43,433 nucleotides of DNA from Minisyncoccota bacterium (GTDB lineage Bacteria > Patescibacteriota > Minisyncoccia > Minisyncoccales > UBA5738), in NCBI GenBank assembly GCA_025453415.1, contig JALOQL010000002.1:1-43433 (forward strand), given 5' to 3'. Below are positions 4,608 through 11,191 of this stretch, piece by piece (position 1 is the stretch's first letter; each line of letters starts with the position of its first letter). The position numbers and the translations under genes were made by a program. The notes beneath the pieces are model-generated. The model worked only from the letters and a program-made list of their open reading frames with translations. It was not told the DNA's origin and ran no database searches.

Positions 4608-5747
4608 TTATTTTTTAGCTTTTTTCGCCGGCGCGAAGAATTCCCTGACGCAGGCAATGACGTAATCGACTTCGGCGTCGGTAAGCTCCGGATAGATCGG
4701 CAAACGCACCAATTCCTTGGCGATGCGCTCGGTCACCGGCAAATCGAATTGCTCCAGCCCCAGACCCGGCAATTTGTGGTTGGGCGTGGTATCGCGGATC
4801 AGCAGCTCAACATTCTTGGACTGCATGAATTTCTTGAACTTCCAGATGTCGGGAACCTTGATGATGTATTCCTGGAAAATTTGCTGCGGCTGCTGCGTCG
4901 GCAATTCGATGGGCAGGTCTTTGAGCCCCTTCTCGTATTTCATGCCGATCGCCCGACGGCGGCGCAGCATCGCCGGATAGTATTTTATCTTGATGTTCAA
5001 TATCGCGGCCTGGATGTTGTCCAGCCGTGAATTGTAACCCCAATCCATTATTTTAGGCGCCTTGGGCTGGTGCCCCAGCAAGGCATTCTGCGTAATGTTC
5101 CAGTGGTTGCGCAAAAGCAGAAGTTTTTCATAGACCTTCCTGTCGTTGGTGATGATTCCGCCCGCGTCGCCCGCCCCACCCAAAGTCTTGGGGGAAATGA
5201 ACGAGAAACATCCGGTCGCGGCAAATGTCCCGGCTTGTTTTTTACCCAAATAAGCGCCCAGCGCCTGGCAGGCATCCTCAACCACCCACAAATTGTGTTT
5301 TTTGGCGATTGCCATGATCCGGGGCATATCGCAAACCTTGCCCGACAGATGCACCGGCACGATCCCCACGGTTTTTTCGGTAATGAGCCCCTCGAGCAGA
5401 TCGACGTTCATCAACGCGTCCTCGCCCACGTCAATCAATATCGGCTTGGCGCCCAAATGGACAATCTCCTCGATCGGCGCTAAAAACGTGTGCGACGGCA
5501 CGATCACCTCGTCGCCGGGCTTGATGCCCAGCGCCTTGTAGGAGATCTTCAAGGCATCGGTGCCGGAGTTGACGCCGACGGCGTATTTGGCGCCGCAAAA
5601 ATCAGCCAGGTTTTTCTCGAACTTGTCCACGTCCTCGCGCAAAACAAAATCCCCTTTCGAGAAGCATTTGTCCAAGGCCTTTAATATCTGGTCCTTATGG
5701 GCGGCGTAGTAACGGCGGTAACTGGAATTTATAAAATCAACCTTCAT
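4608..5747 (-). CDS. DegT/DnrJ/EryC1/StrS-family PLP aminotransferase (likely 4-keto-6-deoxy sugar 4-aminotransferase, PglE/WecE-like, by context)
   Basis: 379 aa. Motifs: GVNSGTDALKISYKALGIKPGDEVIVPSHTF, EDACQALGA, and the PLP-lysine region FSFISPKTLGGAGDAGGIITND. It sits directly upstream of the 4,6-dehydratase in the same block. A minus-strand TATAAT (rc of 5779-5784) lies 32 nt upstream of the ATG. Confidence 0.9.
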   Translation of the reverse strand: MKVDFINSSYRRYYAAHKDQILKALDKCFSKGDFVLREDVDKFEKNLADFCGAKYAVGVNSGTDALKISYKALGIKPGDEVIVPSHTFLAPIEEIVHLGAKPILIDVGEDALMNVDLLEGLITEKTVGIVPVHLSGKVCDMPRIMAIAKKHNLWVVEDACQALGAYLGKKQAGTFAATGCFSFISPKTLGGAGDAGGIITNDRKVYEKLLLLRNHWNITQNALLGHQPKAPKIMDWGYNSRLDNIQAAILNIKIKYYPAMLRRRRAIGMKYEKGLKDLPIELPTQQPQQIFQEYIIKVPDIWKFKKFMQSKNVELLIRDTTPNHKLPGLGLEQFDLPVTERIAKELVRLPIYPELTDAEVDYVIACVREFFAPAKKAKK

Positions 5748-5809
5748 TTTTTTGTAGGTTATAATTGATTACACTTTGATTATAAGCACAAAATTGATCA
5801 AAAAGAAAC

Positions 5810-5838
5810 TTGACAAAATTAAAAAATGACTGTATTTT
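5810..5838 (+). promoter_or_regulatory. Sigma70-like promoter for the plus-strand orphan gene
   Basis: TTGACA (5810-5815), 17-nt spacer, TATTTT (5833-5838) preceded by TG. AAGGAGG (5854-5860) lies 7 nt before ATG 5868. This is a pattern match only. Confidence 0.45.
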
Positions 5839-5867
5839 CTTGCCAGCGAGCTTAAGGAGGGCTCAAC

Positions 5868-6782
5868 ATGAAGATCTTTAAAACAAAATCATATTCAAAC
5901 CAAGGAACATCTCCGATTAAAGGTGTTCGCATTGTGGATTTAAGCCGAATATTTGGAGTGATTCAGGCCACAAATGAAGTATTTCTTCCTTCAATAGGAC
6001 CTAAAATCAGATATAATGGCCTCACTGGCGCAGAGCTGATGGCGGCGTCGATATTAAGAGATTTAGCCGGTTCGGAGCTTAGCTGCAAGAATATTGATCC
6101 AGTCGCAATACTGACCACGGTAAACCGCAAATTGCGGTCATTGTTACCCAATAAAGAAATGATCACACACACGCCTGCCTTTCTTCCTTACGCAAGATTC
6201 GCCCTGCTGTTTATTAGCGACAACGGCAAAGCCGAGGTCATTGCCGGAGGAGATTGTCAGGCGATTGCCCAAACTACGGAAGGAAAACTTCTTTGGACCG
6301 AAAACCAAGCTGGCCCCTACGATCTCGAGAATTATCGGATAATTGGCCTGCACATGGATGCACAAACAAAGAAATACGCCTCTGAAAATAAAATGGCGAT
6401 AGATGATCTCAAACGAGAAAACATCGAAAAAATCCGTGAAGCGATGTGGAAAAGATTTGCTCCGGAATTAGTTGATCGCCGCAACCGCGCAATCAACTCA
6501 ACTTTCGCTGCGCTCAACGGCAATCTTAGAATCACACAACGCTGGCAAAGATTGCCCTTAGGAAATCTGACCGATATTGAAAGAATTATCTGTTACACCG
6601 GGGGCTTTGTTAATATCGCAGCAACACAAAACATGAGAACCTTGGCGCACAAAATAATCAGCGATTACGATATGCACGGATTGAGATCGACCGTTCAAAC
6701 TGCCCAGAACATGTTCTCTCTCAATTGCCGCATGGCTCATATCACTAAACGTGAGGTTGGTGTAATGGTAATCGAGCCATGA
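5868..6782 (+). CDS. Hypothetical protein (orphan; faint, degenerate SpoIIE/PP2C-like resemblance)
   Basis: 304-aa ORF and the only plus-strand gene, with a strong SD. Hand-counted G+C is 21/60, 29/60, 21/60 and 25/60 on lines 5881, 6001, 6361 and 6601, versus 32/60 (line 3601) and 34/60 (line 7021) in the flanks. Weak PP2C/SpoIIE-like strings: NGLTGAELMAASILRDL, ARFALLFISDNGKAEVIAGGDCQAI, IICYTGGFVNI and C-terminal EVGVMVIEP. Several expected metal-binding Asp residues are not conserved. Confidence 0.6.
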   Translation: MKIFKTKSYSNQGTSPIKGVRIVDLSRIFGVIQATNEVFLPSIGPKIRYNGLTGAELMAASILRDLAGSELSCKNIDPVAILTTVNRKLRSLLPNKEMITHTPAFLPYARFALLFISDNGKAEVIAGGDCQAIAQTTEGKLLWTENQAGPYDLENYRIIGLHMDAQTKKYASENKMAIDDLKRENIEKIREAMWKRFAPELVDRRNRAINSTFAALNGNLRITQRWQRLPLGNLTDIERIICYTGGFVNIAATQNMRTLAHKIISDYDMHGLRSTVQTAQNMFSLNCRMAHITKREVGVMVIEP

Positions 6783-6816
6783 AGCTCCGAAACTAACACT
6801 TTTTGAGCTTTTTCTA

Positions 6817-7692
6817 TTACATAAGGCCAAAATGCCGGAGAACTTCCAGGATGCCGTTTTGGTCCACGTGCGGGCCGATGAAATTACGTTCTTTGTCGCG
6901 CCTTGAGACATTTTCCAAAACCTGCGGCACCGCATTTTCCAGCGTGGCGCGATAGCCGCAAAGCTTCATGAATTCCCAATCGACAACGCCATCGCCCGCG
7001 CCCAGAACATTCTCGAACGGAATACCCATATCGCCAATCAATCGCTCCAAACCGGTGGCCTTTGATATGCCCGCGGGCCCGAAAAAACCATAATGATATC
7101 CTTCCAGGAATAAATTATTTCCCCACAGCAAATTCAACCGGCCGCTAAACCCTCGGTAAATCCTTTCCATCGCTTCTTTGGCGCCGCTTTCTTTTGACTC
7201 GCCGGAAACATACAAAACATTTTTGCCGCAAACCGCTTCGACCAGGGATTCGACCGCTTCCGGCGTGATCTGCACCGACGCGGACAATAATTGGTTTATT
7301 TTGTTCCCCGCCTGGTCTTCTTGGACAAAGTAGCTTTCGGGAGTGAAGAAATTGGTAACGATCCCCTCTTGTAGCAGCTGCTGCACCAATCGCGACGAGT
7401 CCTCCTGTGAAACCGTTTTACATTCAAAAATTTCCCCCGACAGCGGGTTCATCGTCAAGCTGCCCATGTCGCCGATATGAAAGTTATTCAAATTCGCTTC
7501 TTTGATGATTGCGGCATTCGTCGGCGCGTAAAACGGCCGGCCGGTGCACAAAATCACCGGGGTCCCGGATTCTTTAATATTTTTTAGCGCGGCGATTATC
7601 TCCGGGCAAGGATCGGGAAAATTTTTTCCGCCCTTGAACCCGACCAGGATTCCGTCAACGTCCAGGACCACCGCCCGTATTTCGGACTTCAT
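6817..7692 (-). CDS. HAD-superfamily phosphatase, Cof/HAD-IIB type
   Basis: 291 aa. Motif I VVLDVDGILVG (DxD), LCTGRP, GISKATGL and GAGDGVVDWEFM, with a large cap insertion between motifs II and III. Confidence 0.85.
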   Translation of the reverse strand: MKSEIRAVVLDVDGILVGFKGGKNFPDPCPEIIAALKNIKESGTPVILCTGRPFYAPTNAAIIKEANLNNFHIGDMGSLTMNPLSGEIFECKTVSQEDSSRLVQQLLQEGIVTNFFTPESYFVQEDQAGNKINQLLSASVQITPEAVESLVEAVCGKNVLYVSGESKESGAKEAMERIYRGFSGRLNLLWGNNLFLEGYHYGFFGPAGISKATGLERLIGDMGIPFENVLGAGDGVVDWEFMKLCGYRATLENAVPQVLENVSRRDKERNFIGPHVDQNGILEVLRHFGLM

Positions 7693-8378
7693 GTTTTGGA
7701 AAAATAATTATTCAAAATCGCGGCCACCCGTTCCTTGAATTTCAGTTGATCGGTGATATTATTATCGACTTCCAAAGCGATCACTTCCCCGAATTCGCCT
7801 TTGGGCAATGACGATAAGTAATTGAAATCTTTCATGTCTTTGACGAAATGGACATCGTGATCGCCGATTTGGGAATAACCGCCCAAATGATTGCTGGAAA
7901 CTTTCGTGCCTTTGCGGGAGAGAATATAAAAAGCTTCGCCGGCGCCGCGGCTTATCGCCGCTTTCAAATGGGCCAGATCAACACAAAATCCGCCGATCTT
8001 TGAAACGTCGACATTCGCCGCGATCCGGTCGTCATAGTTCATTTCCAGGTATAATTTATCCCAATAACCCTGCCACCGGCTTAAAATATCAAAATTGCTT
8101 TCGTGAACATTGAAAAACTTCGTTTTGAATTTGTTGATGAAAAAATCGATTTCGGAGGCATCGGCATCGTGGCGCAAATGAACCAGCGGCACCGATTTGA
8201 TGCTTGATCTTAAAAGCGCGGCGTATAATTTATGCCGTTCGCCCCTTTCGAGCCTTTCTACGAAAACGGCGGCGGCGGCGATCCCCTGCCGGTTTATGTC
8301 GCGAACCTTGCGCCGCCAGCCGGAACCCTGCCCGGTGACGCTCACAAATATTCTTTGTTTAAAATCGATTTCTTCCAT
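7689..8378 (-). CDS. Hypothetical protein (possibly a metal-dependent TIM-barrel-like enzyme)
   Basis: The track ORF 7689..8561 overlaps the EamA gene by 172 nt in another frame. The first ATG clear of it is 8378 (MEEIDFKQRIF...), 11 nt after the EamA stop. It has a 4-nt ATGA overlap with the HAD gene. 229 aa with scattered H/D/E-rich strings HLRHDAD, NVHES, VDLAHL and NHLGGY. Family not recognised. Confidence 0.6.
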   Translation of the reverse strand: MEEIDFKQRIFVSVTGQGSGWRRKVRDINRQGIAAAAVFVERLERGERHKLYAALLRSSIKSVPLVHLRHDADASEIDFFINKFKTKFFNVHESNFDILSRWQGYWDKLYLEMNYDDRIAANVDVSKIGGFCVDLAHLKAAISRGAGEAFYILSRKGTKVSSNHLGGYSQIGDHDVHFVKDMKDFNYLSSLPKGEFGEVIALEVDNNITDQLKFKERVAAILNNYFSKT

Positions 8379-8389
8379 GGCCGGATTGG

Positions 8390-9241
8390 TTAGATCATGA
8401 TTATTATCAACCCCGCGGTCACGCCCGCGATACCCAGGCTTTTCTTCCGCGTTAGCTCGTCGCCGAAAAGCTTGACCGCCAGCAAGCTGATGATGGCCAC
8501 ATTGGCAATATGGATCGCGTTGACATAGCCCATGTTGGGCGCGTGCGTGAAGGCGTTCCACATGAAAATGTTGCCGAATCCCGAAGCAACGCCCATCAGC
8601 AGGAGCGGTCCCGCCTGTTTTTTATGGTCCAGAATGTTAATTTTGCGCAACATGGTCTCAGCATAAAAAAACGATAGCGACAACAGCATCGACCAGAACA
8701 AAAATACCAGCTGGTTTATCCCCGCCAACGTCGCGTATTTCACCGTAATCGATAACGCCGCGTAGGCAAAAAACGCCCCGAAAGAATATTTGGCCCAATG
8801 CCGGCCCGTTGCCTTTCTTTTCCCTTTTTCATTAGCCAAGATCAATAATTGGCTCGCTAAAATAAGCGCCACGCCGGCAATCTTGGCCCACGAAAACTCC
8901 CCGCCAAAAAGGAAAATGGATGCGGCTAAAGTGATCACCACATAGCTTTTGACGATCGCGGTACTATAACCGGGATTCGGGGCGCGATTGAACCCCCGGA
9001 TGCTGGAAGCGTTGCCGGCATAAATGCAAACCGCGGCGAAAACAACCAAAAAATATGCTCCCGGCGCCGATGTTCCAATTCCGGTGGCCGCGCCCGCGAC
9101 GAGAAAAACCAAAACCGCCACCGCGTAAGTGGCGAAATTGATCACTGAAAACGGCACGCCCGCGCGCCAGGTGGTCTTGCCGAGAACCTGCGTCAAAACG
9201 AAAAACATCAGCGCTAGCAAACTCTCGACAACCCAATTCAT
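8390..9241 (-). CDS. EamA/DMT-superfamily membrane transporter (two EamA halves, about 10 TM)
   Basis: 283 aa and almost entirely hydrophobic spans. There are two homologous halves, each carrying APNPGYSTAIVKS or APNMGYVNAIHIA. 4-nt overlap with the E1-beta stop. Confidence 0.85.
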   Translation of the reverse strand: MNWVVESLLALMFFVLTQVLGKTTWRAGVPFSVINFATYAVAVLVFLVAGAATGIGTSAPGAYFLVVFAAVCIYAGNASSIRGFNRAPNPGYSTAIVKSYVVITLAASIFLFGGEFSWAKIAGVALILASQLLILANEKGKRKATGRHWAKYSFGAFFAYAALSITVKYATLAGINQLVFLFWSMLLSLSFFYAETMLRKINILDHKKQAGPLLLMGVASGFGNIFMWNAFTHAPNMGYVNAIHIANVAIISLLAVKLFGDELTRKKSLGIAGVTAGLIIIMI

Positions 9242-10233
9242 AGGCTCATCGTTTTTTTAACCGCCGCGACTATTTGCTCAGCCTTGGGATAATAAGCCGC
9301 CTCAAGCGAACGGCTGGCCGGCGCCGGACAATCCGGCAAACAGACTTTTTCTATCGGCGCCTTCAATGTATATACTTTTGTATATACATGAGTATATACT
9401 CGGCAAGCGATTTCCGAAGAGACGCCAAAACTCTGCCAGGCGCCTTCGGCGATCACCAGGCGGCCGGTCTTTTTGACCGATCCCAGGATCAGCGGCATAT
9501 CAAGCGGTTTTATCGTGCGCGGGTCGATCACTTCGATATCGATTCCCTCTTTTGCCAAAATTTCGGCGGCCTTCAATGCCTCGGGCACCAGATATGATAT
9601 CGCGACCACGGTCGCGTCGGAACCGTTGCGCAGTAATTTTCCTTTGCCGATCGGCACTTCATACAGTTCTTCGGGAACCTCCTCCTCCAGGCCGTAAAGC
9701 CAGCGGTCATCCAAAAAGACCACCGGGTCCGCGTCGCGCACCGCGCTGACCAACAGCCCCTTGGCATCGTAGGGACCGGACGGCATCACCACTTTCAGGC
9801 CCGGCGCGTGGGCGAAGATCGCCTGGATCGCCTGCGAATGCTGGGCGGCCTGCTCGCCGCCGCGGTTGATTATTCCCCAAAACACCGCCGGCACATTGGA
9901 ATTGCCGCCGGCCATATAGCGCCAATTGGCCGCGCCGTTGATGATCGCGTCCAACGCGTAAAACATGAAATCCAAACGCGGATAGTTCATTACGGGTTTC
10001 AGTCCGTTCATCGCGCTGCCGGCCGCCACGCCGCTCATCGCGTTTTCGGAAATCGGCGTATCAATGACCCTTTCTTCGCCGAATTCCTGGATCAGGCCGT
10101 TGCAGGTATTGCCCACGTACCACGGGCTCTTCACCCCCTGGCCGATCACAAAAACCGCCGGGTCGCTTTCCATAAGCTGGCGCAAGGCTTCGTTGATCGC
10201 CAAACCAAATTTCAATTTCCTATTCGAAGACAT
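9238..10233 (-). CDS. ThDP-dependent 2-oxoacid/acetoin dehydrogenase E1 component, beta subunit
   Basis: 331 aa. Motifs: VFVIGQGV, RVIDTPISENAMSGVAAGSAMNGLKPV, VVMPSGPYDAKGLL, EVIDPRTIKPLD. These fit the Transket_pyr + transketolase_C architecture. Confidence 0.9.
   Translation of the reverse strand: MSSNRKLKFGLAINEALRQLMESDPAVFVIGQGVKSPWYVGNTCNGLIQEFGEERVIDTPISENAMSGVAAGSAMNGLKPVMNYPRLDFMFYALDAIINGAANWRYMAGGNSNVPAVFWGIINRGGEQAAQHSQAIQAIFAHAPGLKVVMPSGPYDAKGLLVSAVRDADPVVFLDDRWLYGLEEEVPEELYEVPIGKGKLLRNGSDATVVAISYLVPEALKAAEILAKEGIDIEVIDPRTIKPLDMPLILGSVKKTGRLVIAEGAWQSFGVSSEIACRVYTHVYTKVYTLKAPIEKVCLPDCPAPASRSLEAAYYPKAEQIVAAVKKTMSL
9368..9399. repeat. Three phased copies (12-nt period) of the palindromic octamer GTATATAC inside the E1-beta gene
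   Basis: gtatatac at 9368-9375, 9380-9387 and 9392-9399, separated by tttt and atga. On the coding strand this encodes VYTHVYTKVYT. Confidence 0.9.
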
Positions 10234-11191
10234 GTTTTTGCAAATCGCTTACGACCGGCCGCGGACTGTCGATCGCGTATTCCTGCGCTTTTTTAACTTT
10301 TTCGGTAATTTCCTGCTTCACGGTTTCCAATTCGTCCTTGTCAAAAATTTTGTTTTCCAATAAATATTTTTCAAACCGCATTACCGGGTCTTTCGCCCGC
10401 CATTCATCAACTTCCGCTTGCGGCCTGATATCGGTGTGCTGGCCCTGAATATTGTCATCCGGCCCCACGTGGCCGCGCATACGATACGTCAATGATTCGA
10501 TGAAATACGGCCCGAGACCGGCGCGGCAATGTTTGGCCGCAATCTTGGCGGCTTCGTAAACTTTCAAAATATCGTTACCGCCAACTTGCGCCGCCGCGAT
10601 ACCGAACGGCTCTGCTATTTTATAAAGAGGAATGCCGGGCCGGCACTCACGAATGTGAAGGTGCGTGGAGTACAGGTTGTTTTCGCAAACAAAAATTACC
10701 GGCAGGCATTTCAACGCCGCAAAATTAAGCGATTCGTAGATTATCCCTTCGCCCGCCGCGCCATCGCCAAAAAACGTCGCGGCGATCTGGCCGTTTTTCT
10801 TGATCGAATCCGCCAGCGCCGCCCCGACCGCCATCGCCACGGTCTGGGAAATTATCGGCGCCGAACCCATAAAATTGCAGTCTCGCGCCATAAGGTGCAT
10901 CGAACCGCCCCGGCCGCGGCTGCAACCGGTTTCCTTGGTATAGATCTCGGCCAGCATCCGGTTGAGGTCTCCCCCCTTGGCCAGATAATGGCCGTGGCCC
11001 CGGTGGTTCGAAAACACCTGGTCGCCGCTTTCCAGCGCGGCGCACACGCCCACCGCGGACGCTTCCTGGCCGGTATACAAATGGCACGGGGTTTTCACCT
11101 CGCCCTTCAATATCGGGTCGATCAGACATTCCTCGGCCAGCCGGATCGTCAGCATCTTCCGGTACAAATTTTCCAAAAATGATTTTTCCAT
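10220..11191 (-). CDS. ThDP-dependent 2-oxoacid/acetoin dehydrogenase E1 component, alpha subunit
   Basis: 323 aa. Motifs: HRGHGHYLAKGGD, GRGGSMHL, and the ThDP-binding GDGAAGEGIIYESLNFAALKCLPVIFVCENN. 14-nt overlap with the beta gene. Confidence 0.9.
   Translation of the reverse strand: MEKSFLENLYRKMLTIRLAEECLIDPILKGEVKTPCHLYTGQEASAVGVCAALESGDQVFSNHRGHGHYLAKGGDLNRMLAEIYTKETGCSRGRGGSMHLMARDCNFMGSAPIISQTVAMAVGAALADSIKKNGQIAATFFGDGAAGEGIIYESLNFAALKCLPVIFVCENNLYSTHLHIRECRPGIPLYKIAEPFGIAAAQVGGNDILKVYEAAKIAAKHCRAGLGPYFIESLTYRMRGHVGPDDNIQGQHTDIRPQAEVDEWRAKDPVMRFEKYLLENKIFDKDELETVKQEITEKVKKAQEYAIDSPRPVVSDLQKHVFE

Follow-up and report, generated by a model that had tools for sequence, protein, structure and literature searches.

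In phosphatase structures with the PPM fold, metals M1 and M2 are held by the ED pair of motif I and by one Asp each in motif II and in the SDG motif. The PPM sites of TAB1 and of the C-terminal domain of RssB are degenerate; these proteins are inactive and serve as binding or regulatory modules. To our knowledge, the described pgl clusters for protein glycosylation contain no PP2C-like gene. Here, we analyzed a gene at positions 5868 to 6782 on the plus strand of a 43,433-nucleotide stretch from a Minisyncoccota bacterium of the order Minisyncoccales (GenBank assembly GCA_025453415.1, contig JALOQL010000002.1, positions 1 to 43,433; from here on, the window). The gene starts with ATG and encodes a soluble protein of 304 amino acids that belongs to a PPM/PP2C-fold family without a name. 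We propose, with a probability of about 0.68 for this reading as a whole, that the protein is a catalytically dead PP2C pseudo-phosphatase and that its gene is an old resident of a surface-glycan cluster. The PPM fold and the concept of pseudo-enzymes are already known; the new elements are a subfamily of PPM proteins in this phylum, the conserved location of its gene as an antisense, monocistronic unit within a glycan cluster, the lack of classical partner kinases where it occurs, and a pair of predicted dead and alive orthologues at one locus. Among the precedents are the PPM domain of PHLPP2, which has a degenerate site and is inactive (PMC12002173), and the C-terminal domain of the Escherichia coli adaptor RssB, a PPM-fold pseudophosphatase (PMC6546054).

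A preliminary description, made from the letters of the window, had seen in the protein an orphan of no nameable family with a faint SpoIIE/PP2C-like pattern and a long helical insertion at residues ~150 to 225. Taken alone, the protein indeed had no match in Pfam, NCBIfam, or the sequences of the PDB and did not match the PP2C models of Pfam (PF13672, PF00481, and PF07228) even at E ≤ 10, while a word-indexed search of 5.8 billion proteins returned a single relative (P0002; 53% identity). When 1.84 billion cluster representatives were scanned exhaustively with HMMER, 132 homologues were identified (E ≤ 1e-3), almost all of which are 270 to 310 amino acids long; the gene is therefore not an orphan. 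In an alignment of 84 members (A2), the near-invariant columns, in the numbering of the window protein, are E19, D20, V31, D33, S36, G55, D129, W194, N210, N217, G218, D245, G246, and E296. Pfam matches were obtained to PP2C_2 for 50 of these 84 members (E ≤ 0.1, best 1.6e-6), to SpoIIE for six, and to PP2C for two. The best PDB matches of the family profile were plant and Toxoplasma PP2Cs (E of 0.006 and 0.013), and the alignment with the PDB sequences pairs the ED, GVxDG, GD, and SDG motifs.

Structure prediction gave the same picture. With the 84 homologues as input, AlphaFold2 returned a model with a pLDDT of 96.6 and a pTM of 0.93, while the model from the single sequence was unusable (pLDDT 33.5). 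In a Foldseek search of the PDB, the top 50 matches were all PPM/PP2C proteins (E about 1e-7, probability 1.0, TM scores of 0.4 to 0.66), including TAP38, Stp1, RsbX, MspP, tPphA, PPM1K, PDP1, ABI1/HAB1, and the pseudophosphatase TAB1. In the model, helices 149 to 173 and 183 to 208 form a two-helix hairpin, in agreement with the predicted helical insertion; canonical PP2Cs lack this extra hairpin, and the modest TM scores may reflect it. Judging from the model, the protein almost certainly has the PPM fold, which bears out the faint pattern first seen.

The seven key columns of the family read E-D-D-S-D-D-E in 112 of 158 family sequences, and most of the others are fragments. Given this full PP2C-like acidic ligand set, most members are predicted Mn/Mg-dependent phosphatases. 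In the lineage of the window protein, the same columns read G-V-Q-N-D-G-E (window), G-A-S-N-D-G-E (P0002), and E-T-S-S-D-G-E (P0003). In the window protein, G19, V20, Q33, and G245 replace the family residues E, D, D, and D, while D129 and E296 are kept. Hence, four of the six acidic residues are replaced in the window protein and P0002 and three in P0003, as expected from the non-canonical residues noted earlier at the metal-binding positions. By alignment, E19-D20 would correspond to the ED of motif I, D33 to the Asp that acts as a bridge in motif II, and D245 to the SDG Asp; D129 belongs to the GD motif, and E296 is assigned to the acidic position near the C terminus from its place in the sequence only. 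The window protein thus lacks the full set of acidic ligands of the binuclear Mn/Mg center by which an active PPM enzyme is recognized. Given these residues, we consider it very likely that the protein has no canonical phosphatase activity.

We considered the alternative that the protein remains active as a phosphatase or hydrolase through a remodeled site, made up of D129, E296, and perhaps E37 or D24; its substrate could be a phosphorylated compound of the glycan pathway that is not a protein. The retention of D129 and E296 and the purifying selection on the gene (see below) are compatible with such an activity, as is the finding that Hanks-type kinases are mostly missing from the genomes carrying the family, and STAS proteins from all five checked, so that even its intact members may not act on canonical PP2C substrates. 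However, the residues at the positions that hold M1 and M2 in characterized PPMs are now Q, G, G, and V, and the Pro-to-Arg exchange beside E296 described below looks like a compensation for a lost cation. Moreover, PPM domains of comparable degeneracy are inactive, as reported for PHLPP2 (PMC12002173). We regard an active remodeled site as rather unlikely.

In a maximum likelihood tree of 142 members, the window protein and P0002 grouped with a support of 98, and both grouped with P0003 with a support of 100. These three proteins are sister to P0004, P0005, and the protein of G006, a complete genome of the same genus (support 100), and all three of the latter keep E-D-D-S-D-D-E. Because the degenerate trio is nested beside intact sisters, the loss of ligands occurred once. 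The branches that lead from the common node to the degenerate proteins measure 0.93 to 1.09 substitutions per site versus 0.50 to 0.60 for those to the intact ones. The trio also shares an exchange of Pro295 for Arg beside E296, which possibly compensates in charge for the lost cation, and an exchange of Gln127 for Ala or Thr. A 20-residue extension of the helical hairpin (residues 169 to 188, positions 6372 to 6431, KYASENKMAIDDLKRENIEK) is present only in the window protein, P0002, P0003, and P0004 (alignment A3). Since P0004 is intact, the insert is older than the loss of ligands.

The gene nevertheless appears to be maintained. Compared with its orthologue on contig L002, which encodes P0002 and is 53% identical, the ratio of nonsynonymous to synonymous substitutions (dN/dS) was 0.22 to 0.29 at a dS of 1.2 to 1.6, and open reading frames (ORFs) of 300 to 304 codons are intact in three lineages; together, these data support continued selection on the protein. 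The window protein also keeps the family-specific motifs W194, N210, N217-G218, and G246. It therefore combines the properties by which pseudophosphatases are defined, i.e., an enzyme fold that is kept, catalytic residues that are lost, and purifying selection, and the earlier guess at a pseudo-phosphatase is supported at the level of sequence. We weighed these data against the possibility that the gene is a functionless, decaying relic of which only the promoter and terminator matter, e.g., as a transcriptional insulator between two glycan sub-operons. In line with a relic, the gene evolves faster than the intact sister clade, its low G+C content at third codon positions (GC3) suggests weak codon selection, its flanks are better conserved than its coding sequence, and pseudogene copies of the family exist elsewhere (G110, with five stops; G196 and G175, with one TAG each). 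On the other hand, a relic would not be expected to retain intact ORFs in three lineages near synonymous saturation at this dN/dS, or to keep the fold-determining and family-specific residues in a protein that is predicted to fold with confidence. We consider a relic very unlikely, and we think it quite probable that the gene is functional rather than decaying.

The gene has orthologues at the same position in related genomes. In G006, a gene for a 280-amino-acid homologue lies divergent from the DegT orthologue, which is 85% identical to that of the window. The two short contigs L002 and L069, which encode P0002 and P0003, respectively, have the N terminus of DegT upstream on the opposite strand and the convergent C terminus of HAD or EamA downstream. 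Among the window, L002, L069, and G006, identity is 68 to 84% in the 70 nucleotides upstream of the gene and 80 to 87% in the 40 nucleotides downstream, compared with 47 to 63% in the coding sequence and 30 to 48% at its third positions. The upstream elements conserved in the four genomes are AAACTTGACAA, the −10 box, and CCAGCGAGCTTAAGGAGGGCTCAA. Neither flank motif recurs in the genome, and we therefore rejected the possibility that the conserved flanks are a repeated genomic element. At fourfold degenerate sites, identity between the window and G006 was 0.26 for the PP2C-like gene (n = 38) and 0.46 to 0.57 for seven neighbors, in a comparison in which dS is saturated (1.6 to 2.7) and codon bias differs.

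The conserved flanks coincide with transcription signals. Upstream of the gene, a sigma-70-type promoter at positions 5810 to 5838 comprises a −35 box TTGACA (5810 to 5815), a 17-nucleotide spacer, and a −10 box TATTTT (5833 to 5838), and it is followed by the conserved 5′ leader CCAGCGAGCTTAAGGAGGGCTCAA (5839 to 5867), which contains the Shine-Dalgarno (SD) sequence AAGGAGG (5854 to 5860) 7 nucleotides before the ATG. This promoter had been called the best signal in the window. The TTGACA-17-TATTTT arrangement is present; as a plain consensus match, however, it scores 10/12 and ties with three other sites, and with 22 promoter-like sites in the window versus 20.2 ± 4.1 in shuffled sequences, the match alone is statistically unremarkable. 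The promoter carries weight because of its position and because the −35 box and the position of the −10 box are kept in the units of L002, L069, and G006. Downstream, a hairpin at 6781 to 6816 that overlaps the stop codon has a folding energy of −8.3 kcal/mol (z = −3.3) and is followed by five to six U residues. The corresponding hairpins of the three orthologous units have −6 to −7 kcal/mol, with z scores of −2.2 to −3.3 when the window is included. The next gene varies (HAD, EamA, or a 192-amino-acid ORF), while the downstream element stays with the PP2C-like gene; hairpin and U run are thus a probable intrinsic terminator that moves together with the gene. An Rfam search of positions 5600 to 7000 returned no RNA family. 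With promoter, SD sequence, and terminator all conserved in relatives, the gene appears to be transcribed alone, as a monocistronic unit, from a promoter that lies back-to-back with that of the DegT gene, as was implied by the earlier suggestion of independent expression.

Because the gene occupies the same slot beside DegT in three related genomes and its family lies in the same type of cluster across many families of the order, we conclude that it is an old, fast-evolving resident rather than a recent import. The preliminary description had favored the recent arrival, by horizontal transfer, of an orphan gene that now interrupts the glycan locus, and the composition of the gene had suggested as much. 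We used as a reference the 726 ORFs of at least 150 amino acids in the genome to which the window belongs (1.02 Mb in 117 contigs, 71% complete), in which genes have a mean G+C content (GC) of 0.516 (standard deviation 0.045) and a mean GC3 of 0.620 (standard deviation 0.089). The low GC first estimated by hand was confirmed: the PP2C-like gene has a GC of 0.443 and a GC3 of 0.449, which places it in the 7th and 4th percentiles of the genome, respectively, and its GC3 is the lowest among the real genes of the window. The corresponding values are 0.533 and 0.732 for DegT and 0.511 and 0.616 for HAD, i.e., GC3 is 0.17 to 0.28 below that of the immediate neighbors. Besides this offset, the single close homologue in the 5.8-billion-protein index and the presence of the family gene in only 3 of 12 sampled congeners speak for acquisition. 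By contrast, the orthologues in G006, L002, and L069 are syntenic with conserved noncoding flanks, the gene tree unites precisely these syntenic copies (support 100), and in many families of the order the gene is likewise placed antisense in the cluster. We found no tRNA in the window, no repeats flanking the gene other than short ones at chance level, and no mobility genes beside it, where the neighbors are glycan enzymes. The nearest orthologues are, moreover, equally low in GC3 (0.43, 0.40, and 0.46). Together, these observations make a recent acquisition extremely unlikely; in related genomes, a homologous family is conserved at the same place.

The family as a whole is not shifted toward A+T, a possibility that we rejected, as in other genomes the GC3 of the family gene equals or exceeds that of its flanks (mean +0.05, e.g., +0.18 in L051). 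The offset of −0.17 in the window gene is thus an exception in the family that is common to its nearest orthologues, and we interpret low GC3 as a lineage feature of a fast-evolving subclade, which fits weak codon selection, and not as a mark of recent transfer. A phage-related accessory factor had also been suggested. The window protein had no match in PADLOC or PHROGs; with no such link, we rejected a defense or phage gene. In PADLOC, relatives gave sub-threshold matches only, two to a generic PP2C model and one to the candidate-system model PDC-M21C (E of 0.004 to 0.008). As a caution, odd GC, the opposite strand, and the lack of matches here mimicked horizontal transfer in what is an old, fast-evolving resident.

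Side observations in the genus concern the same slot. DegT orthologues of 80 to 85% identity were present in 6 of the 12 congeners. In G001 (L015, 2811 to 3764, minus strand) and G012 (L017, 437 to 1369, plus strand), a far more divergent PP2C-like gene (profile E of 1e-23 to 1e-27) lies in the slot upstream of DegT and is co-directional with it; its key columns read E-D-D-K-D-D and E-G-D-K-D-D, respectively, and the arrangement could be due to an inversion or to replacement by a different subfamily. Unrelated genes occupy the slot in G009 and G005. In G006 (L053), the match to the HAD orthologue is divided into two overlapping segments that lie in different frames (9859 to 10263 and 10206 to 10739) and point to a frameshift or a split gene, and the 192-amino-acid ORF, absent from the window, lies between these segments and the PP2C-like gene. 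The region upstream of the P0004 gene (L070, 1 to 139) has no DegT start and differs in this from the remaining orthologous units; on inspection by eye, an ORF that seems to start with MKKETRKKHKK runs divergently at this contig edge.

The neighbors of the gene in the window have the Pfam domain types Polysacc_synt_2 (CapD), DegT, Bac_transf, Wzy_C, GT2, methyltransferase, and flippase. We detected the family in 34 of 401 sampled genomes of the order (27 of 246 genera) and in 12 of 400 further genomes across the phylum, and all of the genomes that carry it, which come from uncultured bacteria, are 0.4 to 1.2 Mb in size. We inspected ±8 kb around 20 family matches from 17 families. At 13 of these 20 loci, the family gene is on the strand opposite to the surrounding glycan genes and adjoins Bac_transf or DegT-CapD-Wzy_C or sits between both blocks, and at one further locus it is co-directional and next to Bac_transf. 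The 40-kb contig of P0004 has the same glycan cluster. Since Bac_transf, CapD, and this Wzy_C are each single-copy in the window genome, adjacency to the family gene is far above chance. Moreover, a CapD-type gene was present in 26 of the 34 family-positive and 86 of the 367 family-negative genomes (odds ratio 10.6; Fisher P = 9e-10, which is overstated as kin are not independent). A TTGACA-like −35 box and TAnnnT occurred within 110 nucleotides upstream of 16 of 24 family genes versus 3.7% of random windows, and most of the family genes checked have an AGGAGG SD sequence. The correlation between the pairwise divergence of the family gene and the divergences of CapD, DegT, and Bac_transf was only moderate (rho of 0.26 to 0.52), which is compatible with co-inheritance and is no strict test of it. 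Based on this conserved neighborhood, the role of the window protein is probably connected with the glycan cluster.

Additional observations were made on family loci. Of the five loci outside glycan clusters, two are near cell wall genes: in L049 (G244), MraW is the second gene downstream of the family gene and ClpB is directly upstream, and in L055 (G155), a Mur ligase gene lies two positions away on one side and a formyltransferase gene two positions away on the other. At the remaining three loci, the neighbors encode a DEAD helicase, a LemA protein, and an HTH protein. Tandem or near-tandem paralogues are present in L062 (G196:C35; 7998 to 8882, 9479 to 9889, and 10903 to 11790), L057 (G140:C5; 7998 to 8894 and 9064 to 9882), and L060 (G200:C4; 7081 to 7899 and 7998 to 8894). 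One of the three copies in G196 is broken by a TAG, and an EamA gene lies among them. This pattern of paralogues fits rapid birth-and-death evolution. Further apparent pseudogene copies are G110:C4:3904-4717, with five in-frame stops, and G175:C31:8167-8964, with one TAG.

We next consider the usual partners of PP2C phosphatases. Four of the five near-complete carrier genomes, like the 71%-complete genome of the window, contained no Hanks-type kinase, no STAS protein was found in the five near-complete carrier genomes checked, and PP2C_2 was not detected at the Pfam cutoff in these five genomes or in the window genome. HATPase_c_2 matches in those carrier genomes were weak and in large proteins. 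The genomes in which a Hanks-type kinase was not found include G000, G006, G017, G031, and G191, and STAS was searched for and not found in the four relatives G006, G017, G031, and G191. With kinases mostly missing and STAS proteins missing, the usual PP2C substrates seem to be missing from the carrier genomes. A further possibility is that the family is a PPM enzyme dedicated to glycan clusters that has no classical PP2C partners and acts on a non-canonical substrate, e.g., a glycan-pathway enzyme phosphorylated by a non-classical kinase, a phospho-sugar, or a phospho-lipid intermediate, and that the window lineage is a substrate-trapping regulator of surface glycosylation. We put this forward tentatively, as a speculation that may well be wrong. 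If true, it would provide a natural stand-alone bacterial PP2C pseudo-enzyme with active and dead orthologues at one locus in one genus.

For the pseudo-phosphatase that we favor, we suggest the following history. The family gene is typically monocistronic, with its own promoter with a −35 TTGACA, a strong SD sequence, and a hairpin terminator, and lies antisense between a GT2-methyltransferase-Bac_transf (PglC-like) and a DegT-CapD-Wzy_C (PglE/PglF/PglL-like) sub-operon. In the lineage of the window protein, P0002, and P0003, the ancestral enzyme lost the ligands of the binuclear center once, D20, D33, and D245 first and E19 later; Arg replaced Pro beside the retained E296, and evolution proceeded about twice as fast as in the intact sister branch. 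Fold, family-specific motifs, regulatory flanks, and purifying selection were retained after this loss. The window protein may still bind the phospho-substrate or partner of the family and could then regulate the glycan pathway, or serve it as an adaptor, without catalysis and with an expression apart from the pathway operons. For this protein, the reading with the best support is a pseudo-phosphatase that retains the fold and the conserved non-catalytic surface of the family; by analogy with TAB1, the C-terminal domain of RssB, and PHLPP2, it would act by binding and not by catalysis.

Several points weigh against this reading. The ligands were mapped for four motifs by a hidden Markov model alignment to PP2C structures and for E296 by position only, and D129 and E296 are kept, so that a mononuclear or otherwise altered site is possible. 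The dN/dS is a rough value, as dS is near saturation, and a GC3 of 0.17 below that of the neighbors has no mechanistic explanation. The link to glycan synthesis consists of gene neighborhood only, and 5 of the 20 loci place the family gene beside unrelated housekeeping genes. Finally, 86 of the 112 genomes with a CapD-type gene are without the family; as most such clusters do not have the family gene, it is an accessory component.

As for the surroundings of the gene in the window, a DegT-type aminotransferase gene (4608 to 5747, minus strand) is divergent from it and shares with it a 120-nucleotide intergenic region, and a gene for a Cof-type HAD hydrolase (6817 to 7692, minus strand) is convergent, with a 34-nucleotide spacer (6783 to 6816); the SD sequence and this convergent neighbor were located as previously described. 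All other plus-strand ORFs of at least 150 amino acids in the window overlap longer minus-strand ORFs, and these overlapped ORFs, up to 21.5 kb, bear Pfam domains. The ORF at 5868 to 6782 is thus the sole credible plus-strand gene of the window, in agreement with the preliminary description. At 7689 to 8561, the window contains an ORF without a Pfam match, of which a 290-amino-acid reading from GTG overlaps EamA by 172 nucleotides. A 228-amino-acid gene at the equivalent position beside EamA in L070 points, by positional likeness only, to an ATG at 8378 (229 amino acids). The protein encoded at 7689 to 8378 (229 amino acids) is a candidate partner of the PP2C-like protein.

These results provide a fold and a testable function for a family without annotation (precomputed Pfam entry "-") in a poorly understood group of bacteria that probably attach to their hosts by way of surface glycans. 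The conserved antisense placement and the gene's own strong promoter in a pgl-like cluster suggest a regulatory layer of glycan synthesis. In the literature on this bacterial group, we found no description of this PPM subfamily or of an antisense placement in a pgl-like cluster. The G006 protein or P0004, compared with the window protein, would be a natural active/dead pair and a clean system for the role of a bacterial PP2C pseudo-enzyme.

Compared with known systems, the family resembles the bacterial PPM/PP2C phosphatases Stp1 (5f1m), MspP (2jfr), tPphA (2j82), and RsbX (3w40) in the predicted alpha-beta-beta-alpha sandwich and in the order of its motifs, i.e., ED, GVxDG, GD, SDG, and a C-terminal acidic residue. 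Unlike the PP2Cs described by the Pfam models PP2C_2 (PF13672), PP2C (PF00481), and SpoIIE (PF07228), the window protein matches none of these models and is without four of the six ligands, and, unlike canonical PP2Cs, the family is marked by motifs of its own (W194, N210, and LNG at 216 to 218) and a long two-helix hairpin, and its gene lies in glycan clusters away from a kinase. The cluster in the window has domain types that correspond, by Pfam alone, to those of the pgl clusters of Campylobacter and Neisseria (the dehydratase PglF, the aminotransferase PglE, the phosphoglycosyl transferase PglC, and the ligase PglL/Wzy_C). With TAB1, the Anopheles orthologue of which (2irm) is in the Foldseek list, the C-terminal domain of RssB, and PHLPP2, the window protein shares a PP2C fold with degenerate metal ligands. 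In contrast to these proteins, which are of unrelated lineages, it is a stand-alone bacterial protein and not part of an adaptor or of a eukaryotic scaffold, and its ligands were lost so recently that orthologues which are, as judged from their ligands, catalytically intact still occupy this locus in other members of the genus.

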